From contig RFYK01000004.1 in the NCBI GenBank assembly GCA_009925585.1, positions 1 to 32,000 on the forward strand: a stretch of DNA of 32,000 bases. Reading direction: 5' to 3'. Of this stretch, positions 1,636 through 21,270 are shown piece after piece. The notes beneath the pieces are model-generated. The model searched no databases and was not told the origin of the DNA. It saw nothing but the letters and a program-made list of their open reading frames with translations. This DNA comes from Betaproteobacteria bacterium. Its GTDB lineage: Bacteria; Pseudomonadota; Gammaproteobacteria; Burkholderiales; Burkholderiaceae_C. The translations under genes were made by a program, and so were the position numbers. The stretch's first letter is position 1. Each line of letters starts with the position of its first letter.

Positions 1636-1672
1636 GTACCTCGCATTCTTTCATCTGTTCAAAGGCAGAAAC

Positions 1673-5826: not shown

Positions 5827-5832
5827 GTGACG

Positions 5833-6291
5833 TCAGTTCAACTCAGCCACCAATTCAATTTCCACGCAAGCGCCCATGGGCAATTGCGCCACGCAATAAG
5901 CGCTGCGAGCATGAGCACCGGCATCTCCCAAGATGTGCATCAGCAATTCGCTGCAACCGTTGGTCACCAAATGGGGTTCGGTGAAGGTGCCGTTTGAATT
6001 CACCAAACTCACCACTTTGACAATCCGCTTGATGCGGTTGAGGTCACCGCCACAAGCGGCTTGTAAGGTGCCCAATAAATCAATCGCGATCGATTCGGCC
6101 GCTTGTCTGCCTGTCTCGGTGTCCATGTTTGTGCCCAATTGGCCCACCCAAGCTTTGCCGTCTTTTTTGGCAATGTGGCCACTGACGAAAACCAATTGGC
6201 CTGTTTGCACATAAGGCACGTAGGCCGCAGCCGGAACCGTCACATCGGGAAGTTGGATGTTTCGTTCTTTGAGTCGTTGGTGAATTGCCAT
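5833..6291 (-). CDS. RidA/YjgF/L-PSP family reactive-intermediate deaminase-like protein
   Basis: The protein (MAIHQRLKERNIQLP...FVSGHIA...ARSAYCVAQLPMGACVEIELVAEL) shows family hallmarks. I chose the ATG at 6291, which is preceded by AAGGA, rather than the longer track start at 6339. Confidence 0.8.
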   Translation of the reverse strand: MAIHQRLKERNIQLPDVTVPAAAYVPYVQTGQLVFVSGHIAKKDGKAWVGQLGTNMDTETGRQAAESIAIDLLGTLQAACGGDLNRIKRIVKVVSLVNSNGTFTEPHLVTNGCSELLMHILGDAGAHARSAYCVAQLPMGACVEIELVAELN

Positions 6292-6447
6292 GTGAGTCCT
6301 TGAAAAATGAATCAAAAAGAATGCGCATTGCATTGTCATGCAATTTGAAATCAGCGAAGTGGCATTTTGCCCTTGCCGGGCTCAAGTATTGGCTGAACAA
6401 TCCGATTCAAGAACGCCGATGTGGTTTGTCCAACTGTCATGCTGATT

Positions 6448-7656
6448 ATGAAAACACAACGATTGAATCCTCGCTTGCCCGCCATGCTGTTGGTGTGGCT
6501 GACTGCGTGTGCGTGGGCAGTGGCTCACGCCAATGAAGTGGACGAACAAGGACGGGTGATTGCAGGTCCTTTGGAAACCGATTTGGTCGAACGCGGCTAT
6601 TTGTTTTATCCCTTGCGTGTGTTGCCAAAGCCCGTGGCTGCCACCCCATTGCCCAAAATGGCTGAAGCTGCTGATCAAGTTGCCACAGATTCTGCTGCTC
6701 CCCCTGCGGTTGAAAAACCAGCCACTGTGGCTGCCAAGCCCGTCGCGGCTGCGACGCACGACAGCCATGCCGATGACAAAGCCCATGCAGACAGCGCTGA
6801 CCATGCGCCTGCCGCGCCGCTCTCTGCACCCGCTCCTGCCAAGCCCACGGCTTCATCGGTGTTGGTGCAACGCATTGAGCCGATCAAAGCGGCACCACTG
6901 CCTGCCAAAAGCCATGCGGATGATGACCATGCCGAACCTGTCAAGCCTGCTTTGAGCAAAGCCGAATTGGCCAAGGCTGAGCGCGCCAAGGCGGCCCAAG
7001 AGCGGGCAGAAAAACTCAAAGAAGAACAGGCCAAGGCTGCATTGGCCAGGGCTGAAAAGCTCAAAGAAGACAAAGCCAAAGCCGAACTGGCCAAGGCTGA
7101 ACGCGCCAAGGCGGCCCAAGAGCGGGCAGAAAAACTCAAAGAAGAACAGGCCAAGGCCCAACTGGCCAGAGCCGAGCGAGTCAGAGCCGCCGCACTCGCC
7201 AAAGTTGACCGTGCCTTGGAAGAGCTCGCGCGAGCTGACAAGGTGAAAGAAGAATTGGTGAAAGCTGAATTAGCCAAGGCGGAAGCGGCCAAAGCAGAAG
7301 CGAACAAAGCGGAAGAGGCCAAAGCGCAAGAAGCCAAAGGGGGCGCGGAAACGGCTGAAGCTGACAAGGCTGAAGCAGAAAAAGCCGAGGCCAAAGCAGA
7401 CGATGGCAAAAAAGAAGCCTCTGGTCCAGAGGCAAACCCCAAAGCCGAGGCCGCCAAACAACCTGATGAGCATGAGAAGCACGGCGCTGCCGCCAAAGAA
7501 GAGCCTTCGAAAGCCAACGCTGACCACATGGACGCGCACCATGACAGCCATGGTGACCCGGCCCATGCTGCGCCCAGCGTCGTCACAGCAGGACAAAAAA
7601 TTCTGGTGATCAGCCCAGCCAACAAAGCGCCACCGCCTGCACCTGACGAGCATTGA
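6448..7656 (+). CDS. Secreted His-rich, Ala/Lys/Glu-rich coiled-coil repeat protein of unknown function
   Basis: The ATG at 6448 gives a signal peptide (MKTQRLNPRLPAMLLVWLTACAWAVAHA). The central part carries AELAKAERAKAAQERAEKLKEEQAKA repeats. These are flanked by His/Asp clusters (HDSHADDKAHADSADH, SHADDDH, ADHMDAHHDSHGDPAH). Confidence 0.6.
   Translation: MKTQRLNPRLPAMLLVWLTACAWAVAHANEVDEQGRVIAGPLETDLVERGYLFYPLRVLPKPVAATPLPKMAEAADQVATDSAAPPAVEKPATVAAKPVAAATHDSHADDKAHADSADHAPAAPLSAPAPAKPTASSVLVQRIEPIKAAPLPAKSHADDDHAEPVKPALSKAELAKAERAKAAQERAEKLKEEQAKAALARAEKLKEDKAKAELAKAERAKAAQERAEKLKEEQAKAQLARAERVRAAALAKVDRALEELARADKVKEELVKAELAKAEAAKAEANKAEEAKAQEAKGGAETAEADKAEAEKAEAKADDGKKEASGPEANPKAEAAKQPDEHEKHGAAAKEEPSKANADHMDAHHDSHGDPAHAAPSVVTAGQKILVISPANKAPPPAPDEH
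6961..7158 (+). repeat. Intragenic 120-bp-period tandem duplication
   Basis: 6961-7038 and 7081-7158 are nearly identical (gccgaaytgg ccaaggctga rcgcgccaag gcggcccaag agcgggcaga aaaactcaaa gaagaacagg ccaaggc). The remainder of each 120-bp unit has diverged. Confidence 0.85.
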
Positions 7657-7700
7657 TGGGGGAAGATCAAGTTCGCAGGACTTGGGTCGATCTTTCTGAC

Positions 7701-8129
7701 ATGGATTCATTGACTTTCATTCGACGCATCGTGATGGTGTGCTGCCTCACCTGCTTGGCAGTGGGCAGCGTGCATGCCGAATGGGCCGAGTTGATGAAAG
7801 ATGATGACATCACCTATGTCTGGGACAAAGACTCGGTGCGTGCAGTTCATGTGAGCCGAATTGCCTGGACCATGACCATCGTGACTGCCAAAGGTGTCAA
7901 AGCGCCCAACGGTGAGGAATACCAGTCATCCATGGCGCGTTGGCGCATCAATTGCAAGACCGATTCCTTCATCAAGCTGTCTGAAAGCTTTTATGCCAAG
8001 CCCGATGGCAAAGGCCGTGAAGTGGCTTTTTACGAGGCCGCGGATTGGCGTCCACGTGACGCGGCGATCCGCCCCGGGTCGTACCTTTCGCTCCTGAAAA
8101 AACAAATTTGCACTAGCGCTGAATCCTGA
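7701..8129 (+). CDS. Small secreted protein, surface-adhesin-E-like fold (hypothetical)
   Basis: The ATG at 7701 gives a signal peptide (MDSLTFIRRIVMVCCLTCLAVGSVHA). The pattern W..x..DD.TYVWDKDSV...W....NC......L....Y...G.G...W...PGS......IC resembles the Adhesin_E family by recall. This was not searched. Confidence 0.45.
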   Translation: MDSLTFIRRIVMVCCLTCLAVGSVHAEWAELMKDDDITYVWDKDSVRAVHVSRIAWTMTIVTAKGVKAPNGEEYQSSMARWRINCKTDSFIKLSESFYAKPDGKGREVAFYEAADWRPRDAAIRPGSYLSLLKKQICTSAES

Positions 8130-8163
8130 TTCACCCACCTAAAGTGGGCGGTCTGCACGGCAT

Positions 8164-10602
8164 GTGGCCGGCAGCCATGAAAGGTTTCGATTGCGCATAC
8201 TTGGCGGCCCTGCGCCTGTGTTGCTGGCTTGGTCGGCCGCTACGTTTCTTCAACTGTTTCAGCCGGTGTTGTGGCCGCAAAGCCATTACGCAGCGATGGC
8301 TGTGCTCAGTCTTTGCGTTGGGCTGATCAGTGACTGTCAGACACGGCAACTCGCGCGGGTTTGTGGGCAGATGGTGTGCGTGGCCAGCATGGCGTTTGCA
8401 CTCACCGGTTGGCGTGCGGTCTGTCTTCAGCAACACACATTAACTCCCAAGCTTGAAGGCGTCGATCTGTGGGTCATTGGCGTGGTGACCGAGATGCCGC
8501 AAGTCCGCGTGGACGGTGTTCGTTTTGCCTTTCAGGTCGAGCATGCCCGGCGCCAAGACGATGGCAATGAAGTGGCATTGCCCGATTCGATCAGTTTGGG
8601 GTGGTACAGCCAGCGTGTTGACAGCGAACCGGTGGCATTGCCAAGGCTCAGGGCTGGTGAGCGCTGGCGCTTGCCAGTCCGCCTCAAGCGCCCACATGGC
8701 TTGGTCAACCCGGGTGGGTTTGATGCGGAGCTGTGGGCTTGGTCGCAAGGTGTCCGGGCCACGGGTCAAGTGCGCGAGTCACTGGCCCCGCAACGACTGG
8801 ACAGCACATGGCTTTATCCGGTGGCGCAATGGCGGCAAGCAACCCGTGACGCGATTGCCCGCACGGTCAGTCAAACCAGATGGGCAGGGCAGATCGCCGC
8901 ATTGTTGATCGGTGACCAAGGCAGCATCGACAGCAAAGATTGGGAGGTGTTTCGCCTGACAGGTATCGCCCATTTGGTGAGCATCTCGGGTTTGCACATC
9001 ACTTTGTGGGCATGGATGGCCAGTCGGTTGGTGAGTGCGGTTTGGCGTCACAGCGATGTGTTGGGTCGATCTTGGTGTTTGACCTGTCCCGCTGTCCATG
9101 CCGGCTTGTGGGGTGGCTTGTGCTTTGCGTGGATGTATGCGGTGTTCAGCGGTTGGGGAGTCCCTGCGCAACGCACAGTGTGCATGTTGGCCGTGGCCAG
9201 TGTCTTGCAATGGCGGGCTTGCCGTTGGCCGGTGTGGGAGAGGTGGTCATTGGCCGCGGTGGCTGTGTGTGTGTGGGACCCGTGGGCTTTGTTGCAGCCA
9301 GGGTTTTGGTTGAGTTTTGTGGCGGTCGGCATGTTGTTCTTGATGCCACCATTGCCCCGTGTGGCTGCGACGTCCACCCATGTGCAACCTTCTCGTTGGC
9401 AGACATGCATCAACCCTGTGCGTCAACTGTGGCGCGAGCAATGGGGGTTGACGCTGGCACTCACGCCGCTGACCTTGTGGCTGTTTCAGCAAGTCAGTCT
9501 GGTGGGTTTGGCAGTGAACCTGTTGGCGATTCCTTGGGTCACGCTGGTGGTCACGCCGTTGGCTTTTGCAGGCATGTTGTGGTCACCATTTTGGCAAGTG
9601 TGTGGTTGGGCTTTGCAAGCGATGATGGCGGTGCTCGAGCCCTTGTCGTCGTTGCCCTGGGCGGTGTGGCACAGCGCCGCGCCACCGTGGTGGGTGGCCA
9701 TGTTGGGTTTGAGCGGTGGTGCTTTGGTCATCAGCCAGCAAAGATGGTGCTGGCGGGTGGTGGGTGCAATCGGCGTGTTGCCTGTGTTGTGTTGGCAAGC
9801 GCCGCGTCCTGCGTTGGGTGTGGCGCAATTGATGTTTGCCGACATTGGCCAAGGCAACGCGGTATGGGTGCGGACCGCGCATCACAGTTTGATGTTTGAC
9901 ACAGGGCCGCGCTTTGGTGTGGATAACGATGCCGGGCAGCGCGTGTTGTTACCTTTGCTACAGCAAATGAATGAACCCATGGACACCTTGGTTTTGAGCC
10001 ACCAAGACAGTGACCACACAGGCGGTGCGTTGAGCTTGATGGCGCAGCATGCCAAAGCCACCATCTGGTCTTCCATCACACAGGTGCACTGGCTGTCACA
10101 CCGGTTGTCAATGAAGCGTTGCGAAGCGGGGCAAGCATGGGCATGGGATGGGGTGTTGTTCGACTTCATTCATCCTTTGGCCAGTGACTATGACAAACCG
10201 TTCAGCCCCAACGCGCGCAGTTGTGTGCTGCGCATTCGCGCACAAGGACAAACGGTGCTGTTGACCGGTGACATCGAAGCCATGCAGGAGCAAGCGTTGC
10301 TGCAACGCATGGGAGACGCGCTGCGGGCGGATGTGTTGCTGGTGCCGCACCATGGCAGCAAGACATCGTCTACCGAAGGTTTCATCGACGCCGTGAAACC
10401 ACGCTGGGCGCTGTTTCAACACGGCTACCGAAACCGCTACGGTCACCCCGCACCGGTGGTGGTGCAACGCTACCTGCAACGTGGCATCCAATCCTTGTAT
10501 TCACCCAGCTGTGGTGCCATGCATTGGCGCAGTGACCAACCCGAAGCCGTGTGGTGTGAACGCGCCTTGGACAAAAGGTATTGGCGGTTTGAGGGAGGGT
10601 GA
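8164..10602 (+). CDS. comEC: DNA internalization-related competence protein ComEC/Rec2
   Basis: 812 aa with a GTG start. It has a polytopic competence domain (GIAHLVSISGLHITL) and a C-terminal metallo-beta-lactamase domain (LVLSHQDSDHTGG ... LLVPHHGSKTS). Confidence 0.9.
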   Translation: MAGSHERFRLRILGGPAPVLLAWSAATFLQLFQPVLWPQSHYAAMAVLSLCVGLISDCQTRQLARVCGQMVCVASMAFALTGWRAVCLQQHTLTPKLEGVDLWVIGVVTEMPQVRVDGVRFAFQVEHARRQDDGNEVALPDSISLGWYSQRVDSEPVALPRLRAGERWRLPVRLKRPHGLVNPGGFDAELWAWSQGVRATGQVRESLAPQRLDSTWLYPVAQWRQATRDAIARTVSQTRWAGQIAALLIGDQGSIDSKDWEVFRLTGIAHLVSISGLHITLWAWMASRLVSAVWRHSDVLGRSWCLTCPAVHAGLWGGLCFAWMYAVFSGWGVPAQRTVCMLAVASVLQWRACRWPVWERWSLAAVAVCVWDPWALLQPGFWLSFVAVGMLFLMPPLPRVAATSTHVQPSRWQTCINPVRQLWREQWGLTLALTPLTLWLFQQVSLVGLAVNLLAIPWVTLVVTPLAFAGMLWSPFWQVCGWALQAMMAVLEPLSSLPWAVWHSAAPPWWVAMLGLSGGALVISQQRWCWRVVGAIGVLPVLCWQAPRPALGVAQLMFADIGQGNAVWVRTAHHSLMFDTGPRFGVDNDAGQRVLLPLLQQMNEPMDTLVLSHQDSDHTGGALSLMAQHAKATIWSSITQVHWLSHRLSMKRCEAGQAWAWDGVLFDFIHPLASDYDKPFSPNARSCVLRIRAQGQTVLLTGDIEAMQEQALLQRMGDALRADVLLVPHHGSKTSSTEGFIDAVKPRWALFQHGYRNRYGHPAPVVVQRYLQRGIQSLYSPSCGAMHWRSDQPEAVWCERALDKRYWRFEGG

Positions 10603-10670
10603 TCACAAGGCTGATGGCTGCAGCGCAAGCGATTCATAGGCATCAGGCCCGAGGACCACCGAACAAGCTG

Positions 10671-11513
10671 TCAATCAATCCACTCAAAAAAGTGTTCTGT
10701 GACCGCAGGCCATTTGACATGGGACTCAGTCGTCACGCAGTAACGCAACACGTTACCTTGTCCACATCGCTGTACCTGACAGCCTGACACCTCAGTGTGT
10801 ACTTCTTCTGTGCACTGCATGCACTGTGCCCACCACTTGACCGTGCCTGCGCCATAGCCGGGGAACAAATCATCTTTCGGACTGTGCAGCACCGTCACAT
10901 TCAGTGGTCGAGGACAAGGCTCTTGTTGCAAATCTTCTGCGGTGATGCCAGCCGCACTCACCACGATGTTGCGGGGTGTTGGCAACACCGACGAGCGCAC
11001 GGTCAAACCCGTTGTCACACTGCCGCCATCTGAATGCCCTGCCAGCACCACCCGTTGTTCGTCAATGCACCAAGTGGCTGTGACCGCTGGCACCACCTCG
11101 GTTTGCATGCGCAATGCGCGGCTGGATAAAGGCACGGCTGAGCTAAATACCACCACATAGCCTTGGCGGTGGGCTTGTTCAGTCAGTTTGTAATAACGCT
11201 CTGATGTTTCGTTGGAAAACCCCGCAGGTGGAAACATCATCAACAAACCATAGCGATGTGTGGGCTCGTAGTTGCTGGGCGCAATCACCGAGTAGCGCAA
11301 ACCACTGGGTGTGTACAAATCCATGTGCCGACCGGCGGTGCCAGTCATGCCGGCAGGACAACCCACAGGCAGGGTGTTGAGCGAAGCCACTGCCAAGGGC
11401 AATGGCGGTTTGAACCAGCTCAGCGCCACCACATACAAAAGGCCACCCAACGCCAATGCCGCGATCAGCCATTGCCCGCGTTTGAGCCAGTGGGGCGACT
11501 TGCGTTCAGTCAT
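10671..11513 (-). CDS. Membrane-anchored alpha/beta-hydrolase esterase (PHB-depolymerase/LpqC-like); last gene of the CuMMO operon
   Basis: The ATG at 11513 (MTERKSPHWLKRGQWLIAALALGGLLYVV) gives an N-terminal anchor. The nucleophile elbow GHSDGG is present, along with a Cys-rich C-terminus ending ...ESHVKWP that is typical of this esterase family. The start overlaps the upstream copD-fusion gene by 8 nt (cATGACTGA). Confidence 0.6.
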   Translation of the reverse strand: MTERKSPHWLKRGQWLIAALALGGLLYVVALSWFKPPLPLAVASLNTLPVGCPAGMTGTAGRHMDLYTPSGLRYSVIAPSNYEPTHRYGLLMMFPPAGFSNETSERYYKLTEQAHRQGYVVVFSSAVPLSSRALRMQTEVVPAVTATWCIDEQRVVLAGHSDGGSVTTGLTVRSSVLPTPRNIVVSAAGITAEDLQQEPCPRPLNVTVLHSPKDDLFPGYGAGTVKWWAQCMQCTEEVHTEVSGCQVQRCGQGNVLRYCVTTESHVKWPAVTEHFFEWID

Positions 11514-13392
11514 GTTGATGAATCGCAGCGGATTTGATTTTGCCTTCCAAAGACAATGTGTCGTAGATCTGTTTGAGTTCGTTGATGGAAAGCGCAGAAG
11601 GGGATTCATCTGAACGCCAGCGCGCTCTGACAAACCCATAGCGATCAATCAAAAATTCCATGCGCGGGACGCGTGTTTCTTCGTTGAATAAATCGGGGGC
11701 TGCAAAGCTGCGACGGTAATTTGACCAAGCTTGCGCGATGACACCCTCTGAATCGCCCACCAAGATGGCTTCGCAAGGACCCTTGACCAAGTCTTTCAAC
11801 CATTCTGGGCGACTGACGATCACCAGTTGTGCAGGAAAGCCTTTCATGTCTTGCAATAAATCTCGCACCCTTTGCAGCTCGTTTTTTTGGTTGACAAAGA
11901 CCAAATGCACCGCGTGCAAGCCTCGCCATTCAGACAAAGACATGAAGTTGGTTGTGTCCATTTGAAATCGAAAATCAATGCTGGGCAACCAAGGGTTGAA
12001 TGGCGCAGGTGTGTTGGTCAGGCTGCGTGCCTCATGCCCCAGAGACTGCGCAACCAACCAGTTGATCAGATGCCAGCGTTCATCCACGGTCAACACATCT
12101 GCAAAACCCGGCATGAGTCCTTTGCCGTGACTGAGCCACCAAAACATGTCGCCGTGGGTATGCCAATTGACATGCGGCTCGGTCAGGTTGGCGGGTTTCA
12201 TTTGGTTCAGGATCGCCAACGGGCCATCACCATGGCCATGCAGGCCATGACAGGATTGGCAATGTTGTTCATACAAGGCATGGCCAGCGGTGACAGAAAC
12301 CACATCTAGCCGTGCAGATGAGTGCATGTACGTGGTGGGGTAGGCGGTGATGCTGGTGGCAGGCAGCGTCACCACCAATGCGGCCAGGACGCCAGTGCAA
12401 AGCGCAACCCGCGCGAGGAGTCGGAAGGTGTGACGCCCGAGCAACCACAACATGAGGCCAACCACGCCAGCTGCCGCACCCCACGCCAGTTGTTGCACTG
12501 TGCCAGTAGGGTCTTGTTGCCAGGCCAGTACAGGTGCCCAGCGAAATGAAAATGGCCACACGATCGTGTCGTGTGCGGCGGGAATGGTGCTTGCCAACCA
12601 ACTGGCCATCAACAAAACCGCCAAGGCCAAACCCAATTCGCTGGTGAGCCATGTGCGTGCCTGAGCATCAGATGTTTGCGAGCCTCTCAGCCATGTTCGC
12701 AATTGCCATGCACACACCAGTGCACCTGCAACCATCATCAACTTGAGAACCAACTGCAAGCCATAAGGCGTTGCCACCAAGCCGGCCCAGCTGGCCACCG
12801 TGTCGTTGGCCAAGCTGACACCAGAGGCCAAGATCAGCAACATGCCGGGCAGCGCCCAGGTTGAAAAATGTGCCAACGTCAGACGCCAAGTGTTTGTCGC
12901 GGCGTCACTGGTTTTGGCTCGCCACCACAATCCAATCACGCCAGACAGCCACAGTTGTGCCAACAGCACATGCAGGCTTGATACCAGCAGTTGCACCCAG
13001 CTTTCAGCAGCTGCCGCCACATGCCCCGTCAAAGCAGAACCTAGCATGGCAAGCAACAACACACACACGCTCAGCTTGTGATTTCGCAGCCACATGAGGC
13101 TTGTCAGCGCCAGCAGCAGGCAGACCACTTGTGCCAAGACAATTTGACCGACGTGCGTTTGCACCATCAATCCGAGGCTGAACGGTTCATTGCTCAAGTC
13201 TTGCAAAGTCCATGCTGTGTAACCCAAGCGAAGCAAAGCACAACACAGGGCAGAAGAAATCAACCAAGCAACGAGGCGGTGCGCCGAAAGTTTTGGCGTG
13301 TTGAATGGTGGGGTGGAAGTGGTCCAGAGCAAACCGAATGCAAACGCCATCAAGGCAGTTTGTGCACCCCTTAATGCAATGATCGGATCCAC
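11506..13392 (-). CDS. copD: CopD-family membrane protein fused to a class I cytochrome c and a C-terminal thioredoxin-like domain
   Basis: The N-terminal ~400 aa are polytopic and CopD-like. The heme motif CQSCH is encoded at 12247-12261. The C-terminal ~180 aa carry a thioredoxin-fold signature (MEFLIDRYGFVRARW) but no CxxC. The start is uncertain: a GTG at 13392 sits 2 nt after the copC stop, and ATG at 13350 is an alternative. The track start at 13533 would overlap copC. Confidence 0.7.
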   Translation of the reverse strand: MDPIIALRGAQTALMAFAFGLLWTTSTPPFNTPKLSAHRLVAWLISSALCCALLRLGYTAWTLQDLSNEPFSLGLMVQTHVGQIVLAQVVCLLLALTSLMWLRNHKLSVCVLLLAMLGSALTGHVAAAAESWVQLLVSSLHVLLAQLWLSGVIGLWWRAKTSDAATNTWRLTLAHFSTWALPGMLLILASGVSLANDTVASWAGLVATPYGLQLVLKLMMVAGALVCAWQLRTWLRGSQTSDAQARTWLTSELGLALAVLLMASWLASTIPAAHDTIVWPFSFRWAPVLAWQQDPTGTVQQLAWGAAAGVVGLMLWLLGRHTFRLLARVALCTGVLAALVVTLPATSITAYPTTYMHSSARLDVVSVTAGHALYEQHCQSCHGLHGHGDGPLAILNQMKPANLTEPHVNWHTHGDMFWWLSHGKGLMPGFADVLTVDERWHLINWLVAQSLGHEARSLTNTPAPFNPWLPSIDFRFQMDTTNFMSLSEWRGLHAVHLVFVNQKNELQRVRDLLQDMKGFPAQLVIVSRPEWLKDLVKGPCEAILVGDSEGVIAQAWSNYRRSFAAPDLFNEETRVPRMEFLIDRYGFVRARWRSDESPSALSINELKQIYDTLSLEGKIKSAAIHQHD

Positions 13393-13394
13393 GG

Positions 13395-13757
13395 TCAGGG
13401 CGTTTTGACTTTGAAGACGAACTGTCCTCGACTGGCGTGTCCATCTTTGGCCAAGACAGACCACTGCACTTCGTAGTTGTTGGCGACATGCGTGGGCAAG
13501 TTCACCAGCAACGTCAAAGTGACTGCATCCCATTGGATGTTTTCAGCGTTCACAGGCAACGGTTGGGCATTTGCGATGACCTTGATGCGGACAAATTTTT
13601 TCTCGATCGGTTCAGAAAATTTCAACCTCAATTGTTGAGGTGATTGGCCAATGACTGCATTGGCAGGTGGTTCGGTGTGTAGCAAATGGGCATGAGCGCC
13701 AACCCATGAGGGCAAACAAGCCAAGCAAACGCTCAACCAGCGTAAAACCGTGACCAT
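13395..13757 (-). CDS. copC: Copper-binding periplasmic protein CopC/PcoC
   Basis: 120 aa with a signal peptide ending VGA. The mature N-terminus is HAHLLHTEPP, the N-terminal His typical of the CopC Cu(II) site. The motif LAKDGHASRG is also present. The ATG directly abuts the upstream stop (TGAATG). Confidence 0.85.
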   Translation of the reverse strand: MVTVLRWLSVCLACLPSWVGAHAHLLHTEPPANAVIGQSPQQLRLKFSEPIEKKFVRIKVIANAQPLPVNAENIQWDAVTLTLLVNLPTHVANNYEVQWSVLAKDGHASRGQFVFKVKTP

Positions 13758-14327
13758 TCAATGTGCCTGAGTGTCTTTGGCTTCTTGCATGGCCACATCG
13801 CGTTGAAGCCGTTGACGACCGAGCTGCAAACCAAATACCGCGAGCAGCAACAAGCCCAACAAGCCCAAGGTGTATTTCCAATAACCCACACTGGATTTGC
13901 CGACAGAGAAGGGAAACACCGAGGCGTATTTGCGGTCAGCGCCCGCATACACCATGCCAACATAGTCGCCATCGTCCATGAAGTCGTGGCGCACCATCAA
14001 TGTGCCCTTGGGGTAGACCGCCGGTGACAGTTTGTAGACCTCAGGCGCCGCATCCAAGGGGCCATCCGTTTTGCGAACGATGCGAAATTCGATGGGTAAA
14101 TCCCGCAGGGCCAAATCCACCACATCCAGCACGATGATGGTTGGTCCTTTGTGCGGAATGTCTTCACAAAACTCGGTGCGCTGCGCATCTTCTTGGTAAC
14201 CCGCGAAGTGCATCATGTAAGGCCCCACGGTCAGTTTGCACATGTCTTGTTCCATGGACAAACCACCGTGAGCCCACGCCGTGGTGGTAGCCAGCCACAT
14301 GCTTGCAGCCAACCAAACGTGTTTCAT
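13758..14327 (-). CDS. PmoD/AmoD-like periplasmic protein with a C-terminal TM anchor (putative Cu protein)
   Basis: It has a signal peptide (MKHVWLAASMWLATTTAWA), a ~150-aa periplasmic domain with a C-x7-M-x-H motif (CKLTVGPYMMH), and one C-terminal TM helix (YTLGLLGLLLLAVFGL). Its position immediately after xmoB and before copCD matches amoD/pmoD. ATG at 14333 is an alternative start. Confidence 0.55.
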   Translation of the reverse strand: MKHVWLAASMWLATTTAWAHGGLSMEQDMCKLTVGPYMMHFAGYQEDAQRTEFCEDIPHKGPTIIVLDVVDLALRDLPIEFRIVRKTDGPLDAAPEVYKLSPAVYPKGTLMVRHDFMDDGDYVGMVYAGADRKYASVFPFSVGKSSVGYWKYTLGLLGLLLLAVFGLQLGRQRLQRDVAMQEAKDTQAH

Positions 14328-14334
14328 GCGCATC

Positions 14335-15573
14335 TCACAATGCCGTGAAGGTAGGCAGGATCGGTCCACCGACTTCGGTCATCAAACGGTTCCCCGATTT
14401 GTCGACGAAGAACAGCAGGCCACCGAATTTCGAGTCCACATCGGTCAAGAAACTGACCAATCGCTCGACTTCCCACAACGCATCGCTGGCTTCGAATTTG
14501 ATTTCGCGTGTTTCACCCGGCATCAAAGGCTTTTGGTCAGATAAGCCTAAACCACCGCGCGCAACCAAATCACGCGGGTAGTCTGCGCTGATGGCTTTGT
14601 CTGCGCCCGGCGCTTGTGTGTTCACAAACCGCAGGTTGGCTGTGGCGAACTCCAAAATAGAGACAGCTTCTGTGCCATGGTTGGTCATGCGTGCAGTGAC
14701 ATGCATGGCGCGACCAGGCACGTCATAGCTGGCTTTGAGCACCTTGACATCCACTGAATGGGCTGGTTTGGGCAGTGGATCGACTTTGTTGGTACCCGCT
14801 TGCAATGGCACCACATAGGGGTATTCGTGCTTGGCATACATGTAGCCGCCAAACGAGATGGCCACCACCACGACCCCCAAGATCACACCGACGGTGATGT
14901 CACGGTTGCTGATCAGCACATCCTCACGGCCTTTGTTCAAAGCGATCCAGCGTGGCAATAACAAGGGGCGCACCAACCAGAACAGCAACCAAAATGCGGC
15001 CAAGGCAAGCCAAACCGCGTACCACTTGAGTGCGCGTGCCGTGCCGTAGAACTCCAAGTTGTCAACCTCGATGCCGTTCATGGTCGTGACTTTTTGGACA
15101 TAGTCGCCTTTGGCGCCAGTCACTTCAATCCATTGACCGGGACCGACCAATGGTCCCGAGCCATGAATCGACAGCAAGGGGTGGATATGGTGACGACCAG
15201 GGACGCGGCCTTTCATGACCAACTTGAATTCGTAATCGCGGCCCAATTCAAGCTTAGAAAAAGACTGGCGTGCAGGCATGCCATTGAGGTAGCTTTCCAC
15301 CCGAGTGATCATCGGGCCAGGTGAATAAGCAGACAAAAACACCGTGTCAGGCAGGCTGACCGCGTCTGGCCAGTCTTCCATCAAACGAAAACGCCCGATC
15401 AAGGTGAACTCTTCGTTGACCTTGACACTTTGCTTGTCGTAGTGCACGTCGTAGTACTGCACAGTGCGGGTACGCAGGTACGGTTCTTGTGAGCGCTCAC
15501 CGTGGGCCCAAGCAGACTCGGTCGCGATGCCGATCAGCCCTGTCAATCCCAGCCACAGCAACAACATCTTCAT
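14335..15573 (-). CDS. xmoB: Copper membrane monooxygenase subunit B (PmoB/AmoB family)
   Basis: It aligns by eye along its whole length with M. capsulatus PmoB. The signal peptide ends AWA and is followed by HGERSQ (His33 equivalent). RVPGRHHIHP corresponds to His137/His139. Two central TM helices are present. The C-terminal cupredoxin region contains PLQAGT, VPGRAM, NHG, PGETR, WEVERL, FGGLLFF and ends GNR...PILPTF. ATG at 15639 is an alternative longer start that would overlap xmoA by 20 nt. Confidence 0.9.
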   Translation of the reverse strand: MKMLLLWLGLTGLIGIATESAWAHGERSQEPYLRTRTVQYYDVHYDKQSVKVNEEFTLIGRFRLMEDWPDAVSLPDTVFLSAYSPGPMITRVESYLNGMPARQSFSKLELGRDYEFKLVMKGRVPGRHHIHPLLSIHGSGPLVGPGQWIEVTGAKGDYVQKVTTMNGIEVDNLEFYGTARALKWYAVWLALAAFWLLFWLVRPLLLPRWIALNKGREDVLISNRDITVGVILGVVVVAISFGGYMYAKHEYPYVVPLQAGTNKVDPLPKPAHSVDVKVLKASYDVPGRAMHVTARMTNHGTEAVSILEFATANLRFVNTQAPGADKAISADYPRDLVARGGLGLSDQKPLMPGETREIKFEASDALWEVERLVSFLTDVDSKFGGLLFFVDKSGNRLMTEVGGPILPTFTAL

Positions 15574-15619
15574 TGTTTTTTGTATCAACTGCACAATTTT
15601 TCCCCTTGACGTTGAGTGC

Positions 15620-16471
15620 TCAAGCACTGGCTTTGACATCCGCTTTGGTTCCCATCAAAGCCATGACCTTGGCGTTGTTGGGCAGGAATTTCATGGAGGA
15701 CATGGCAATGCCCAAATACCACCAGGCGTAGTGCATGAAGATGCAAATGAAGCCCCCAAACAGGGCAGAGACCCAACTTGCCGAATCACCAAAGGTTCGC
15801 AGCGTGCCGCGTTCGATGATGCGGATGTACTCGGGCGTGGCCGAACGGGGATACACGTAACCGATCAGGTCGGCCATCGAAGCCATCATGCCTTGGTGAC
15901 TCACTGGCACATAAAAAGGCGCAAAGATGGTGTAGTTGGAGGGGTAGAACAAGAAGGCAAATGCAAAGCCACCAAATATCGCGGTGAACAAGGCATTGCG
16001 AAACACCAACAAGAAGACATCCAACACGATGGCACCTGCGATCATTTGTGCGGGCAACACCAAGTTCAGCGGATAGTCGGTCCACCACATGAAAGAGGCG
16101 GGGCGCGAGATCGACACCGCCACCATCAGACAAGTTGCACCCACGGTCGCACCAATGGGCAAGCGAAAGTAAGTCCAGAAGATGCCTTGCAAAGCCGCCG
16201 GGAACATGATCATTACCACGGGCGACAACAACGGCCAGTACTGTCGGTCTTTCCAATCCAAGAACATGTCCCAGTCACCAGCCAGCAACAGCACATGCAA
16301 GTGAATGGCGCCAGCGAACAGCATGATGATGGCAGCAACCACAAAAAGTTCGAAAACGCGTGAGTAATGCAGGGCTTTGGGTGACAGGCCAGAGACGCTC
16401 TCCACAGTATCGTGGGCGTGCGTTTGTCCAGCCGCAGCACCCTGAGGATGTTGCAGTGTTTCAGTGTTCAT
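15620..16471 (-). CDS. xmoA: Copper membrane monooxygenase subunit A (PmoA/AmoA family)
   Basis: 283 aa with LLLAGDWDMFLDWKDRQYWP, FRLPIGAT, LFYPSN and ATPEYIRIIERGTLRTFG, all hallmark PmoA/AmoA motifs. An AGGAG sits 7 nt upstream of the ATG. Confidence 0.9.
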   Translation of the reverse strand: MNTETLQHPQGAAAGQTHAHDTVESVSGLSPKALHYSRVFELFVVAAIIMLFAGAIHLHVLLLAGDWDMFLDWKDRQYWPLLSPVVMIMFPAALQGIFWTYFRLPIGATVGATCLMVAVSISRPASFMWWTDYPLNLVLPAQMIAGAIVLDVFLLVFRNALFTAIFGGFAFAFLFYPSNYTIFAPFYVPVSHQGMMASMADLIGYVYPRSATPEYIRIIERGTLRTFGDSASWVSALFGGFICIFMHYAWWYLGIAMSSMKFLPNNAKVMALMGTKADVKASA

Positions 16472-16498
16472 GATGAGCTCCTAGTGCGTGGCGACCGT

Positions 16499-17278
16499 TT
16501 AAGCGTTTTCGTGTTTGAAAACGATAGGCATGAGTTCGCGAAAACGCGAGATGATTTGCATCAAGACGCCTGCCAGTGACAACGCGTTCCAGCCCAAGAC
16601 CACAAAGCCCCAGTGCAATGGGTGAGAGAAGATTTCTTCGGTCAACCAGTAAGCATGGCCCCATTCGTTGTAGCCCAAGTTAGGCAGGATGAGGAAAGGA
16701 CCCACCACGGCAAACACGTGCATCAAAGAAATGCCTTTGCAAAAAGCAGGAATGCGGGTCATGGCATACACAAAACTGCCAATGCCAAACATCAGGTACA
16801 TGGGGATGCATGCATAAAACAGCACAACATGGCTCGGCGTGATGGGTGTGTCGCGAAGCACAGTTTGGTGCCAGTTGCCATCGCCTTCGCCAAAGAAGCT
16901 GCCGATCCAATAGAAAGTGAAGGTGTAAACCACCAACCACATGGTCAGGTAGAAATAGCGTTTGAGTTCGACTTCAGGGGTGATCGCATCGATGTTTCGA
17001 TCACGTGTCATGAACAGGTAAATTTGAATCACTGCCACGATGCCAAACAGCACAGGCAATTGAATGTAGAAAAGGCGCATCCAAATGTCTTGGAAAATGG
17101 GTTCGGTCGAATCCAAGCCTGCGGTCATGCCGTACATCTGTTGATAGACACGGTATGACACATAGACGCCCGTCAGGACGATCATGGTGATGGCAAACCA
17201 GATGTAGCTGAGCGTGAATCGAGACGTGGTGTCGCTCGTTTGGGTGAGGTGAAGTTCTCTGCTGGACAACGTAGACAT
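16499..17278 (-). CDS. xmoC: Copper membrane monooxygenase subunit C (PmoC/AmoC family)
   Basis: 259 aa with TRDRN, GDGNWHQTVLRDTPITPSH (Asp/His/His CuC ligands), KGISL, VVGPFLILPNLGYNEWGH and PLHWGFVVLGW (Asn/His/His CuD ligands). An AAGGAG sits 7 nt upstream of the ATG. Confidence 0.9.
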   Translation of the reverse strand: MSTLSSRELHLTQTSDTTSRFTLSYIWFAITMIVLTGVYVSYRVYQQMYGMTAGLDSTEPIFQDIWMRLFYIQLPVLFGIVAVIQIYLFMTRDRNIDAITPEVELKRYFYLTMWLVVYTFTFYWIGSFFGEGDGNWHQTVLRDTPITPSHVVLFYACIPMYLMFGIGSFVYAMTRIPAFCKGISLMHVFAVVGPFLILPNLGYNEWGHAYWLTEEIFSHPLHWGFVVLGWNALSLAGVLMQIISRFRELMPIVFKHENA

Positions 17279-17494
17279 AGATCGACTCCTTGTGTTCGGT
17301 GTGAAAACCGTTTGTCAACTTGAACCAGCGAATTTTTGAAATTTCCAGCCTGTTGAACAACGGTGTAAACACCTATGAAATGCAAGGTATTTCATTTAAT
17401 CAAGCGAAAAGTGCGCTTGAATTTGGGATCTAAACCCCGCCTTGGGATGATTCATGCAGTATCTTGCATGAAAGAGGCGAGGTTTGTGGCGTTT
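17279..17494 (-). promoter_or_regulatory. Putative promoter/operator region of the xmoCAB operon
   Basis: This is the only sizeable non-coding gap around the operon and it looks AT-rich by eye. It holds two inverted repeats: TTCATGCA-n6-TGCATGAA at 17451-17472 and ATGAAAT-n7-ATTTCAT at 17375-17395. A weak sigma70-like candidate (TTGTTC-n17-AAAAAT) lies on the minus strand. No experimental or consensus-level support. Confidence 0.3.
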
Positions 17495-18690: not shown

Positions 18691-21270
18691 TTAAACCTGC
18701 TCAGACACCCGCTTGCCGATGTGCGCGAGCGCTTCTTCCACTTGGTCGATCAATATCAAACACAAATCGCCTGGGTTCAATTTGCCCAACGCATGGTCGA
18801 TGGCGATGAATTCGCCTTGGATTTCCACAACGTCGCGGGTCAGGCTGGCGTCTTGCAAACCTTGGCGAAGCAGGGCAATGACTTCGCCATCTGCACGGCC
18901 ACGTTGACAAGCGTCTTCAAACAACACCACGCGTTCAAACGCATCGCCAATGACGCGGGTTTGCTCTCGTATGTCTTCGTCGCGCCGGTCACCCGCGCCG
19001 CTGATCACCACGCTGCGTTCTTTGGCAGGCAAATTGGTCACCGCTTGCACCAAGGCTTTGATGGCGTCAGGGTTGTGACCGTAGTCTGCAATGATGGTCG
19101 CGCCCTTGTAGCTGAACATGTTGAAGCGCCCGGGCACTGCTTGGGTGTCGCTGACAAACGTGGACAAACCTTGGCAAATGGTGGCCCAAGACAAGTTCAC
19201 AGCCCAAGCCGCGCCAATGGATGCCATGGCGTTTTCCACTTGAAAACCGATGGCGCCGTTTTGTGTCAACGGCACTTCATTCAATGAGATGCGAATTTGT
19301 TGCGAACCTTCTTGCGCGACGATATGGCCGTCTTGCACATACAGCACGCGCTTGCCTTGCGCACGGTGCGTGGCCAGCACCGGGTGGTGCGGGTCAACTG
19401 CAAAGAACGTGACTTGCCCAGGGCAATTTTGGGCCATGGCAGCGACCATGGGGTCGCTGGCATTCAAAACCGCCATGCCTTGGGGTGACACGTTTTGCAC
19501 GATGACGCGCTTGAGCACGGCCAGGTCTTCCACCGTGCTGATGTAGTTCAAGCCGAGGTGGTCACCCGAACCGATGTTGGTGACCACGGCGACTTGGCAA
19601 CGGTCAAACGCCAAGCCCTCGCGCAACATGCCGCCACGCGCGGTTTCCAGCACGGCCGCGTCAACATCTGGGTGCATCAACACACTTCGCGCACTGCGCG
19701 GGCCACTGCAGTCGCCCGTGTCAAGTTGCAAGCCATTCACATAGACACCGTCGGTGTTGGTCATGCCCACACGCAGTCCGCTGCTTTTGAGCAAGTGCGC
19801 GCACAAACGCACCGTGGTGGTTTTGCCGTTGGTGCCGGTGACGGCAATCAATGGAATTCGACCGTCTTGGCCGGGGGCAAACATGGTGTCGATGATCGCG
19901 CTGCCCACATCCCGACCTTTGCCAAAGGACGGTTGCAAATGCATGCGAAGACCGGGCGCTGCGTTGACTTCCACAATGCCACCGTTTTGTTCTTCCAGCG
20001 GTTTGAGCACCGATTCGCAGACCACATCAACGCCGCAGACATCCAGCCCCACCATTTGCGCGGCCATGACAGCGCGTGCCGCCACTTCGGGGTGAACATC
20101 ATCGGTGACATCGGTAGCGGTTCCGCCCGTCGACAGGTTTGCGTTGTTGCGCAACACCACGCGTGCGCCTTTGGGTGGCACGCTGTCAGCGTCAAAGCCT
20201 TGTTCTTTCAAACGCGCCACGGCGATGTCGTCAAAGCGAATTTTGGTCAAAGATGTGGCGTGTCCGTCACCGCGGCGTGGGTCAGCATTGACCTTGTCGA
20301 CCAATTGACGCACAGAGGAAACGCCATCGCCCACCACCAACGGCGGCTCTCTGCGTGCGGCGGCCACCATGCGGTCACCCACCACCAGCAAACGGTAATC
20401 GCTGCCTGGCAGGAAACGCTCGACCATGATGTCGTCACGGTATTCCAGCGCGTTGTTGAAAGCCTCAATGACTTCTTCGCGCGTGCGAATGTTGACCACC
20501 ACGCCCTTGCCTTGGTTACCGTCACGCGGCTTGACCACCACCGGCAAACCAATTTCCTGGGCGGCAGCCCACGCGTCTTCGGCGCTGTTCACGGGCCGAC
20601 CCAGCGGCACAGGTACGCCGGCGGCTTGCAACATTTTTTTGCTGAGCTCTTTGTCTTGTGCAATCGATTCAGCGATGGCGCTGCTGGCATCGGTTTCAGC
20701 GGCTTGAATGCGACGCTGTTTGCTGCCCCAGCCAAATTGCACCAAGCTGGCATCAGAGAGTCGGCGGTAGGGGATGCCACGCGCCAATGCCGCGTCGACG
20801 ATGGCACCTGTGGATGGCCCGAGGCGAATGTCTTCATCAAGTTCGCGCAAAGTGTGCAGCGCTTGGTCAACATCGAATGCAGTCGATTCAAACGCAGCCA
20901 AACACAACTGCTCTGCCAATTGCATGGCCAGTTTGCCCACTTGCTCGACCGAGTATTCCACGACCACTTGAAACAAGCCTTCTTCTGGCGTGGAAGTGGT
21001 GCGACTGAATGTCACAGGGCATCCGGCTTGAATTTGCAAATGCAACACCGTGGCTTCTAATGCATGCGCCATGCTCAAGTGGGCGTCGCGCTCACCGGGT
21101 TGCAGTCGACCCAAACCGGGAAACATGTGACGCAGTCGTTTTTCAAACGCTTGTTGGTCAGCACTGAGGTCGCTCTCAAGACCGGGCGCGCAACGCACCA
21201 TGGCTTCAATGGCGGTGTGGCGCGTCCATAAATTGGGGCCGCGCAACGCGCGAATACGGGTGACTTCCAT
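18691..21270 (-). CDS. cphA: Cyanophycin synthetase
   Basis: 859 aa. It has the characteristic N-terminal domain (MEVTRIRALRGPNLW), an ATP-grasp domain (KPRDGNQGKGV) and a Mur-ligase-like domain (VTGTNGKTTT) with a full C-terminal extension. Confidence 0.9.
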   Translation of the reverse strand: MEVTRIRALRGPNLWTRHTAIEAMVRCAPGLESDLSADQQAFEKRLRHMFPGLGRLQPGERDAHLSMAHALEATVLHLQIQAGCPVTFSRTTSTPEEGLFQVVVEYSVEQVGKLAMQLAEQLCLAAFESTAFDVDQALHTLRELDEDIRLGPSTGAIVDAALARGIPYRRLSDASLVQFGWGSKQRRIQAAETDASSAIAESIAQDKELSKKMLQAAGVPVPLGRPVNSAEDAWAAAQEIGLPVVVKPRDGNQGKGVVVNIRTREEVIEAFNNALEYRDDIMVERFLPGSDYRLLVVGDRMVAAARREPPLVVGDGVSSVRQLVDKVNADPRRGDGHATSLTKIRFDDIAVARLKEQGFDADSVPPKGARVVLRNNANLSTGGTATDVTDDVHPEVAARAVMAAQMVGLDVCGVDVVCESVLKPLEEQNGGIVEVNAAPGLRMHLQPSFGKGRDVGSAIIDTMFAPGQDGRIPLIAVTGTNGKTTTVRLCAHLLKSSGLRVGMTNTDGVYVNGLQLDTGDCSGPRSARSVLMHPDVDAAVLETARGGMLREGLAFDRCQVAVVTNIGSGDHLGLNYISTVEDLAVLKRVIVQNVSPQGMAVLNASDPMVAAMAQNCPGQVTFFAVDPHHPVLATHRAQGKRVLYVQDGHIVAQEGSQQIRISLNEVPLTQNGAIGFQVENAMASIGAAWAVNLSWATICQGLSTFVSDTQAVPGRFNMFSYKGATIIADYGHNPDAIKALVQAVTNLPAKERSVVISGAGDRRDEDIREQTRVIGDAFERVVLFEDACQRGRADGEVIALLRQGLQDASLTRDVVEIQGEFIAIDHALGKLNPGDLCLILIDQVEEALAHIGKRVSEQV

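Follow-up and report, generated by a model that had tools for sequence, protein, structure and literature searches.

Copper membrane monooxygenases (CuMMOs) of Comamonadaceae heterotrophs are already in the literature, where they were read as ammonia-oxidising in 2012 and as alkane-oxidising in 2020. Here, we describe an operon of this kind, xmoCAB-xmoD-copC-copD/cytochrome c/thioredoxin-fold-esterase. It lies on a 32,000-nucleotide stretch (hereafter the window) of contig RFYK01000004.1, from a Betaproteobacteria bacterium (assembly GCA_009925585.1). The operon is under purifying selection and differs from the operons of nitrifiers and methanotrophs, and we suggest that it probably serves the oxidation of a small hydrocarbon or a related volatile.

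Among the closest described systems is the xmoCABD gene set of alkane-utilising Rhodoferax and Polaromonas (Rochman et al. 2020, ISME J 14:714), where a CuMMO is reported from non-nitrifying Comamonadaceae and xmoCAB is followed by a pmoD-type gene. The locus in the window is likewise an xmoCABD in a non-nitrifying Comamonadaceae/Burkholderiales host. Both are distant from ammonia monooxygenase (AMO) and particulate methane monooxygenase (pMMO), and the relatives of the window are linked to aldehyde and fatty-acid genes. However, the host of the window appears to be Limnohabitans-like and pelagic, and no catabolic genes adjoin the operon in the window. Here, the conserved unit comprises seven genes, including a fusion of CopD, cytochrome c and a thioredoxin-fold domain, and an esterase. 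Within Limnohabitans, genes taken for an 'ammonia monooxygenase' are reported from strains Rim28 and Rim47 (Zeng et al. 2012, J Bacteriol 194:6302). These strains match the host of the window at the genus level, as judged by DnaK, and carry the same kind of gene; the reading of the Limnohabitans genes as those of an ammonia oxidiser is not supported by our sequence comparisons.

The amoCABED-copCD arrangement of betaproteobacterial ammonia-oxidising bacteria (beta-AOB; Nitrosomonas, Nitrosospira) shares with the window the C-A-B order, a PmoD-family gene, copC-copD and the copper ligands, so the likeness to amoCAB(ED)-copCD drawn in the preliminary description of this DNA is a fair one. However, the window has one D-type gene (of the Cx7MxH class, like AmoE and PmoD) where beta-AOB have two. 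It also differs in the fused CopD, the extra esterase, the heterotroph host and an XmoA of only 42-44% identity, and neither hao nor cycAB is seen. The alphaproteobacterial pmoCAB-pmoD-copC-copD-pCuAC operon (Methylosinus, Methylocystis) resembles the window in having a single PmoD with a Cx7MxHxnC motif, followed by copC and copD. It is, however, without the cytochrome c fusion and the esterase (PMC6189053), while the window is without a methylotrophy context. By description only, the actinobacterial HMO (Mycobacterium NBB4) and BMO (Nocardioides CF8), heterotroph CuMMOs acting on C2-C4 hydrocarbons, offer a functional analogy.

The novelty of the locus was overrated in the preliminary description. 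The exact XmoA is deposited as NBX61014.1, 'amo' genes of Limnohabitans were reported in 2012 and the xmoCABD genes of Rhodoferax and Polaromonas in 2020, and later work has catalogued pmoCAB-type operons in metagenome-assembled genomes (MAGs) of Burkholderiales. What is added here is the assignment of the host to Limnohabitans and the demonstration that the operon was inserted at a site that varies between relatives. Further additions are the seven genes defined as a conserved module, a palindromic control element specific to the clade and a warning on automatic 'AMO' labels.

The operon encodes a complete copper membrane monooxygenase

All seven densely packed minus-strand genes reported for positions 10671-17278 are present, see Table 1. 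The spacings were computed with the starts set by independent gene callers (xmoB at 15573, copD at 13392, gene 7 at 11513), and those given earlier were reproduced. There are 27 nt between xmoC and xmoA, 46 nt between xmoA and xmoB, 0 nt between xmoD and copC and 2 nt between copC and copD, and copD and gene 7 overlap by 8 nt. The gap between xmoB and xmoD is 1 nt if xmoD starts at Met13, and 7 nt with the gene caller's start. An alternative ATG at 15639 would extend XmoB to 434 aa. On identical public contigs gene callers give 259 aa for XmoC, 283 for XmoA, 412 or 434 for XmoB, 180 or 189 for the fourth gene, 120 for CopC, 614 or 628 for the CopD-cytochrome c protein and 280 for gene 7. The reading of the seven genes as one operon holds, with the C-A-B order kept in more than 20 loci.

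Table 1. Coordinates of the operon, its control elements and the insertion that carries them (positions in the window).
Feature	Position	Strand	Remarks
xmoC, CuMMO subunit C, 259 aa	16499..17278	-	Pfam AmoC; ribosome-binding site AAGGAG in front
xmoA, CuMMO subunit A, 283 aa	15620..16471	-	Pfam AMO
xmoB, CuMMO subunit B, 412 aa from MKMLLLW	14335..15573	-	Pfam Monooxygenase_B
xmoD, PmoD/AmoD-family cupredoxin, 189 aa	13758..14327	-	PDB 6cpd match
copC, periplasmic copper-binding protein, 120 aa	13395..13757	-	Pfam CopC
CopD-cytochrome c-thioredoxin-fold fusion, 628 aa	11506..13392	-	Pfam CopD and Cytochrome_CBB3
gene 7, predicted membrane-anchored, periplasm-facing alpha/beta-hydrolase, 280 aa	10671..11513	-	AlphaFold2 model and Foldseek
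Palindrome ATGCA-N6-TGCAT	17454..17469	-	about 180-190 nt upstream of xmoC; candidate operator/activator site
Conserved block TAGGTGTTTACACCGTTG with TTTACA	17358..17375	-	at -97; candidate promoter element
Accessory insertion, 6.9 kb, operon and upstream control region	10603..17494	-	between the convergent stops of ComEC (10602) and DctP (17495)

The three monooxygenase proteins are bona fide CuMMO subunits. XmoC matches Pfam AmoC (E-value 6e-89, 298 bits), XmoA matches AMO (3e-80, 270 bits) and XmoB matches Monooxygenase_B (2e-136, 456 bits), all far above the gathering scores. The NCBIfam equivalog cut-offs for bacterial ammonia monooxygenase are not reached by all three. XmoB passes AmoB_BACT (514 bits, cut-off 336) and XmoC passes AmoC_BACT (344 bits, cut-off 319), while XmoA fails AmoA_BACT by 7 bits (282.9 bits, cut-off 290) and also fails the A-subunit model TIGR03080 (255 against 318).

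The copper ligands are all in place. The signal peptide of XmoB ends at AWA|HGERSQ, so that predicted cleavage leaves an N-terminal His, which together with HHIH provides the ligands of the CuB His-brace; these align with AMO 9leg and 9cl6. XmoC has D133, H137 and H150 for CuC and N204, H208 and H222 for CuD, all of them aligned with AMO 9pxf, and its motifs DGNWH...TPSH and NEWGH...PLHWGF match the solved AMO structures column for column. The motifs quoted in the preliminary description (HGERS and HHIH in B; DGNWH, TPSH, NEWGH and PLHWGF in C) are thus real. XmoA had also been said to carry extensions at both ends, which is correct in comparison with PmoA, whereas against the AmoA of beta-AOB only the N-terminal extension stands.

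The structures used were AMO from Nitrosomonas europaea (9cl6) and Nitrosospira briensis (9pxf), the further AMO 9leg, and pMMO (1yew, 6cxh). Solved AMOs are the top PDB matches for all three subunits, but they are ahead of pMMO by only about 5-20 bits: 230 against 220 bits for A, 374 against 353 for B and 245 against 240 for C. The lowest-scoring solved A subunit against XmoA is alpha-type pMMO (186-188 bits).

Purifying selection acts on all seven genes. The ratio of nonsynonymous to synonymous divergence (dN/dS) is 0.04-0.05 for xmoC, 0.11-0.16 for xmoD and 0.10-0.22 for the accessory genes, where dS is at least 0.7 and synonymous divergence is saturating. XmoA is exceptionally constrained, with a dN/dS of 0.01-0.03 at a dS of 0.7-1.4. 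The operon is therefore functional, and a decaying remnant is ruled out.

XmoA is distinct from both AMO and pMMO

In pairwise BLASTP, XmoA is 42-44% identical to the A subunits of AMO (9cl6, 9pxf, 9leg) and 43-44% to gammaproteobacterial PmoA (1yew, 6cxh). AmoA and PmoA are 48-52% identical, i.e., closer to each other than XmoA is to either. A word-indexed search retrieved 265 XmoA homologues, graded continuously from 97% to about 47% identity, and among the best 120 of these none is more than 46% identical to AMO. In a library of representatives clustered at 50% identity only 23 proteins reach an E-value of 1e-30 against XmoA. The nearest representatives (P0092 and P0102) are 52-53% identical to it, the more distant ones at most 44%.

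A neighbour-joining tree was built from 137 sequences (261 columns, 200 bootstraps); since it is built on the distances of one subunit, its deep branching should be read with caution. The XmoA of the window falls in a clade with P0001-P0007 (100% support), inside a group of 33 sequences that are at least 66% identical to XmoA (100% support). AMO, pMMO and all other distant representatives lie behind a split with 99% support; with the group P0109-P0120 added, the support is 93%. The AMO anchors are found across both splits, so XmoA is not placed within the AMO clades. It also lies outside the pMMO anchors, and no methanol dehydrogenase is encoded in the window. The proteins had been judged by eye to be far from Amo and Pmo, and this is clearly the case; no nesting within the AMO of Nitrosomonadaceae or the pMMO of methanotrophs is seen. 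An ordinary amo or pmo locus is ruled out by the identities together with the tree. The operon belongs to a broad Xmo radiation, distinct from bacterial AMO and pMMO, and the named members of this radiation are all Burkholderiales. Where close relatives are found in named genomes, these are MAGs from freshwater and rivers, under the labels Comamonadaceae, Burkholderiales, Burkholderiaceae and Methylibium.

These results bear directly on the reading of the enzyme as a true ammonia monooxygenase, by which Limnohabitans would convert ammonia to hydroxylamine, for energy or as heterotrophic nitrification, as was reportedly proposed in 2012 with the genomes of strains Rim28 and Rim47. The two equivalog cut-offs passed and the third missed by 7 bits, the best PDB matches, the amoCAB(ED)-copCD-like layout, the name 'bacterial ammonia monooxygenase' given to relatives by NCBI and the repetition of the claim in the literature all agree with it. 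However, XmoA is no closer to AmoA than to PmoA, its clade is outside AMO in the tree, and relatives are linked to aldehyde and acyl-CoA genes. The host would be a fast-growing heterotroph, and PMC3591437 says that experimental confirmation does not exist. Hydroxylamine oxidation is recognised by hao and cycAB in a genome (PMC11135946), and these genes are found neither in the window nor in any fetched flank (+/-10 kb around at least 20 related operons). We consider an ammonia monooxygenase improbable.

Methane is the other classical substrate, and pelagic Limnohabitans might co-oxidise or use it in oxic lake water. XmoA is equally similar to gammaproteobacterial pMMO (43-44%), all pMMO copper ligands are kept, PmoD, CopC and CopD occur as in the extended alphaproteobacterial pmo operons, and a PCuAC-type gene follows the operon in two relatives (L032, L033). 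On the other hand, the clade is outside all pMMO anchors, and mxaF/xoxF and genes for C1 assimilation are absent from the window and from related flanks. Rochman et al. reportedly saw no methane assimilation by bacteria with related genes. A methane monooxygenase is, in our judgement, very improbable.

The accessory proteins

The labels given earlier to the remaining genes (D, copC, copD, cytochrome c, esterase) are borne out by Pfam, by PDB 6cpd and by Foldseek. XmoD has no Pfam match, and it matches the crystal structure of PmoD (6cpd) with an E-value of 4e-18. It consists of a signal peptide, a periplasmic domain and, at the C-terminus, a transmembrane helix (N-terminal MKHVWLAASMWLATTTAWA, C-terminal YTLGLLGLLLLAVFGLQLG). 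The motif Cx7MxHxnC (CKLTVGPYMMH...EFC) is present in XmoD, and xmoD itself is conserved in all related loci. Only the PmoD class with this motif forms a CuA site, and this class is the one found inside pmo and amo operons (Fisher 2018, PMC6189053). By its sequence, XmoD is thus a predicted member of the CuA-forming PmoD/AmoD class.

CopC matches Pfam CopC above the cut-off (E-value 1.4e-18, 68 bits). Its predicted mature N-terminus is HAHL, a DGH motif is seen in the sequence, and no other gene of the operon is as poorly conserved (28-69% identity). The next protein combines a CopD membrane domain (E-value 3e-13, 50.5 bits, above the Pfam cut-off) with a mono-haem cytochrome c (Cytochrome_CBB3, E-value 4e-12; CQSCH at residue 378). 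CopC and CopD are divergent, as both remain below the NCBIfam equivalog cut-offs. The C-terminal domain of the fusion (176 residues) has no Pfam match. A profile of 11 sequences of this domain matches the BCP-type peroxiredoxin 3hjp (E-value 8e-5), i.e., it has a peroxiredoxin/thioredoxin fold, without the catalytic Cys. The fusion is called in 9 of the 9 gene-called loci that extend this far (L016, L018, L021, L024, L027, L028, L029, L032, L034).

Gene 7 has no Pfam model above the cut-off, only sub-threshold hydrolase matches. Its AlphaFold2 model is of high confidence (pLDDT 93.3), and in Foldseek it matches a feruloyl esterase (8jh8, 2e-12), acetyl-xylan esterases and the polyhydroxybutyrate (PHB) depolymerases 9byu and 8daj. 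Across 49 homologues, S161 (in GHSDGG), D214 and H265 do not vary, and eight Cys are conserved. The label 'esterase' is thus supported. The N-terminal helix (residues 8-33) is preceded by four positively charged residues. Together, the model and the sequence indicate an anchored serine hydrolase of the feruloyl-esterase/PHB-depolymerase fold that is predicted to face the periplasm.

The family of gene 7 is small: as far as the word index reaches, 72 clusters were found in 5.8 billion proteins. Homologues of 29-33% identity are found away from xmo genes (L116:8291-9870, L117:8300-9909, L118:3084-4693), each directly 3' of a gene of about 210 aa that has no annotation, suggesting that the two genes make up a module of their own. 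At this range, the idea that gene 7 is specific to xmo loci is ruled out.

A conserved module with changing neighbours

When the seven proteins were searched by tblastn against the fetched loci, the same genes were found in the same order on all contigs of sufficient length, from 99% down to 51% XmoA identity, with the exception of one clade at 59-66%. All seven are present in L001-L004, L007-L010, L013, L016-L019 and L032-L035, and gene calls on L016, L018, L032 and L034 agree with this order. Gene 7 follows copD wherever a locus of 51% or higher XmoA identity extends to this position, except in the 59-66% clade (L027, L028, L029 and the P0036 contig), where it is missing. Identity falls along the operon; for L001 it is 99% in A, 92% in C, 88% in B, 81% in D, 69% in CopC, 65% in the CopD fusion and 57% in gene 7. 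In L001-L004, XmoA is 96-99% identical, CopC 47-69% and gene 7 57-68%, with similar synonymous divergence. Operons with 96-99% XmoA identity are found in unrelated flanks, which is in line with the operon being transferred whole; across relatives, the neighbours differ and the seven genes keep together.

In L027, L028 and L029 (59-62% XmoA identity), the CopD fusion is followed by an acyl-CoA synthetase, and L027 alone also runs into an aldehyde dehydrogenase, a thiolase and an enoyl-CoA hydratase. The P0036 contig (XmoA 66% by BLASTP, 63% in the alignment) is without the copper genes, and xmoCAB and xmoD are followed by Ribonuc_L-PSP, FAA_hydrolase and RraA-like genes. A LysR regulator is found upstream in L028 and adjacent to the operon in the P0036 contig. 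In L028 (62%), genes for a resolvase, a phage-type integrase and transposases (Transposase_mut, ISL3) bracket the xmo cluster (1-8944, 18935-19714), which looks overtly mobile. In L016 (73%), a sigma-54-type activator (MimR_N/HTH_8) is divergent from xmoC (L016:7588-8727), and 3' of the seven genes lie an acyl-CoA synthetase, a thiolase, a short-chain dehydrogenase/reductase and an enoyl-CoA hydratase (L016:16237-20650). A PCuAC-type gene (PF04314, LpqE-like) comes after the seven-gene operon in L032:15862-16560 and L033:8710-9333, a relative of 74% identity.

The conserved hydrolase and the regulator raise the alternative that the substrate is an oxygenated volatile (acetone, another ketone or the precursor of an ester), the product of which would be processed by the esterase. 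In mycobacteria, MimR controls an acetone/propane monooxygenase, and an activator of the MimR_N type adjoins xmoC in L016. Further, the esterase with its invariant Ser-Asp-His is a part of the conserved operon, and a verrucomicrobial pMMO homologue oxidises acetone (PMC8630023). However, the known routes from ketone to ester (Baeyer-Villiger) are cytoplasmic, whereas the periplasm is the predicted side of the esterase, and neither a Baeyer-Villiger monooxygenase nor an alcohol dehydrogenase is adjacent. Also, gene 7 is missing in the 59-66% clade, and its distant homologues occur without xmo. An oxygenated volatile is, on balance, a rather unlikely substrate.

Insertion into a Limnohabitans-like chromosome

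The window matches public contigs from freshwater metagenomes, more than 22 of which encode the exact XmoA next to the same neighbours; this protein is deposited as 'methane monooxygenase/ammonia monooxygenase subunit A [Betaproteobacteria bacterium]'. The nearest named matches of DnaK are all Limnohabitans (a MAG at 98%, a Limnohabitans sp. at 93%, strain Rim8 at 90%). Judged by this marker, the host is a Limnohabitans-like freshwater heterotroph. The flanks encode a ParC-like protein, MFP/RND efflux, RidA, ComEC, a DctP TRAP binding protein, two cyanophycin synthetases, ABC/DUF1854, PGA_cap and DnaJ/DnaK/GrpE, i.e., housekeeping genes. The surroundings had been described as typical of Comamonadaceae-type heterotrophs, with no hao, cycAB, mxaF/xoxF or alcohol/aldehyde dehydrogenase in the 32 kb; both points hold, as none of these genes is found in the window.

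Relatives of the flanks were found in a metagenome scan with the neighbouring DctP and compared by tblastn and blastn. Three of them (L038, L039, L040; DctP 82-85%) share the wider gene order, with ParC-MFP-RND-RidA-adhesin-ComEC on one side and DctP on the other; in these, the stops of DctP and ComEC are about 15 nt apart and there is no xmo. In L037 (DctP 92%, cyanophycin synthetases 89-92%) the spot of the operon is instead taken by an RHH/ParE-like toxin-antitoxin pair of 1 kb (L037:8852-9902). Since syntenic relatives are without the operon at this place, it is an accessory insertion of 6.9 kb. Since the same spot holds a toxin-antitoxin pair in one relative and nothing in three others, it is a recurrent integration site. 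The support for the insertion comes from the comparison with relatives only. No flanking direct or inverted repeats, no tRNA, integrase, transposase or mobility genes and no Rfam families at gathering thresholds are found in the window, and the GC content at third codon positions does not differ between the insertion (0.638) and the flanks (0.643).

The upstream control region

The 216-nt region 5' of xmoC travels with the operon. Aligning it in seven members of the clade, which have differing flanks, reveals three conserved elements. The first is an invariant palindrome: all 7 clade members carry TGCA-N6-TGCA between -175 and -193, whereas its background frequency is 0.02 per 320 nt. The more distant clades lack it and have instead an adjacent MimR_N/HTH_8 activator (L016) or a LysR regulator (L028, P0036 contig). 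No cognate regulator is encoded beside the operon of the window. The second element is the conserved block TAGGTATTTACACGGTTG at about -97. Its pattern occurs in six of the seven members (-94 to -101), and in the seventh (L034) the block has diverged and misses the pattern, with the invariant alignment columns kept. The third is the ribosome-binding site AAGGAG.

The conserved block is a candidate promoter element. A scan with the sigma-70 consensus gave no convincing promoter and no site upstream of xmoC; promoter-like sites were fewer than in shuffled sequences and terminator-like sites about equal to them. By eye, no -24/-12 spacing of sigma-54 is seen in the conserved block.

A proposed function for the operon

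Taken as a whole, the data are in our opinion best explained by a functional CuMMO operon, acquired as an island, that most likely oxidises a short-chain hydrocarbon or a related volatile; we hold this with moderate confidence. XmoCAB would assemble in the membrane as the usual trimer of heterotrimers, in which XmoB holds the CuB His-brace and XmoC the CuC/CuD sites, and would hydroxylate a small, poorly polar molecule with O2. The accessory genes may form a dedicated periplasmic module for the supply of copper and electrons. In such a module, (i) CopC and CopD would acquire or import copper, (ii) candidates for carrying electrons to the monooxygenase would be the CuA-type XmoD and the haem c domain of the CopD fusion, (iii) the degenerate thioredoxin-fold domain may serve in docking or as a chaperone and (iv) the anchored serine hydrolase would have a role that is probably product- or lipid-related. 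To our knowledge, copper loading and electron supply are unsettled for all CuMMOs. The conserved module gives a compact set of candidates for these two functions.

The physiological substrate would be a C2-C4 alkane or alkene, possibly a ketone, and neither ammonia nor methane. Small hydrocarbons are favoured because relatives adjoin aldehyde and acyl-CoA genes, with a MimR-type regulator and beta-oxidation-like genes in L016, and because no hao or cycAB is found in any fetched flank. They are also favoured because in 2020 Rochman et al. reportedly linked related betaproteobacterial xmoCABD genes (Rhodoferax, Polaromonas) to ethane and propane.

Several points weigh against this proposal. The clade of the window itself has no catabolic gene beside the operon, so that the substrate is borrowed from relatives with 59-73% XmoA identity. 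XmoB and XmoC pass AMO equivalog cut-offs, AMO structures are the top PDB matches for all three subunits, and the layout of the operon resembles that of beta-AOB. CuMMOs are promiscuous, and sequence therefore cannot fix the substrate. The tree is based on distances of one subunit only, hao or cycAB could be present elsewhere in the genome, and the cytochrome c domain and XmoD are no more than candidate electron carriers.

A bolder version of the hydrocarbon proposal can be speculated upon, although we think it clearly unlikely. Here, Limnohabitans would oxidise trace volatile hydrocarbons in oxic lake water by means of a mobile operon, with haem c-CopD and XmoD as the electron route. If true, ethane, propane, ethylene or isoprene produced by algae or photochemistry would have an unrecognised pelagic sink. 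Limnohabitans is one of the dominant genera of freshwater bacterioplankton. We know of no settled answer to the question of the physiological reductant of pMMO and AMO, and if this version is true a culturable heterotroph would make the CuMMO reductant question tractable.

Consequences for annotation

Public pipelines label the operon 'ammonia' or 'methane/ammonia monooxygenase', and environmental studies cite Limnohabitans as a possible nitrifier. The NCBI equivalog models for bacterial AmoB and AmoC (NF041640 and NF041641) pass on proteins that are not from ammonia-oxidising bacteria, and relatives receive from PGAP the name 'bacterial ammonia monooxygenase'. Such names make it easy to call nitrifiers wrongly in freshwater metagenomes. 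The evidence presented here argues against inferring nitrification or methanotrophy from such genes in these metagenomes. The enzyme belongs to a very abundant lake bacterium, of which isolates exist for tests of the substrate.

Other genes of the window

Two adjacent cyanophycin-synthetase genes (18691-23474, minus strand) lie beyond DctP, and the pair adjoins DctP in L037 and L040 as well. One protein has 734 aa, with the Cyanophycin_syn N-domain and no Mur ligase domains; the other has 859 aa, with Mur ligase domains. On the other side, a 411-aa open reading frame without a Pfam match overlaps a 158-aa Adhesin_E-family gene by 4 nt (6421-8129, plus strand), and this pair is kept beside ComEC on the identical contigs. 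Finally, the GrpE reading frame, as listed, overlaps the start of DnaK by 79 nt (30826-30904, minus strand). The Pfam GrpE domain ends at residue 177 of 208, and the tail may be a read-through or an artefact of the start or stop call.

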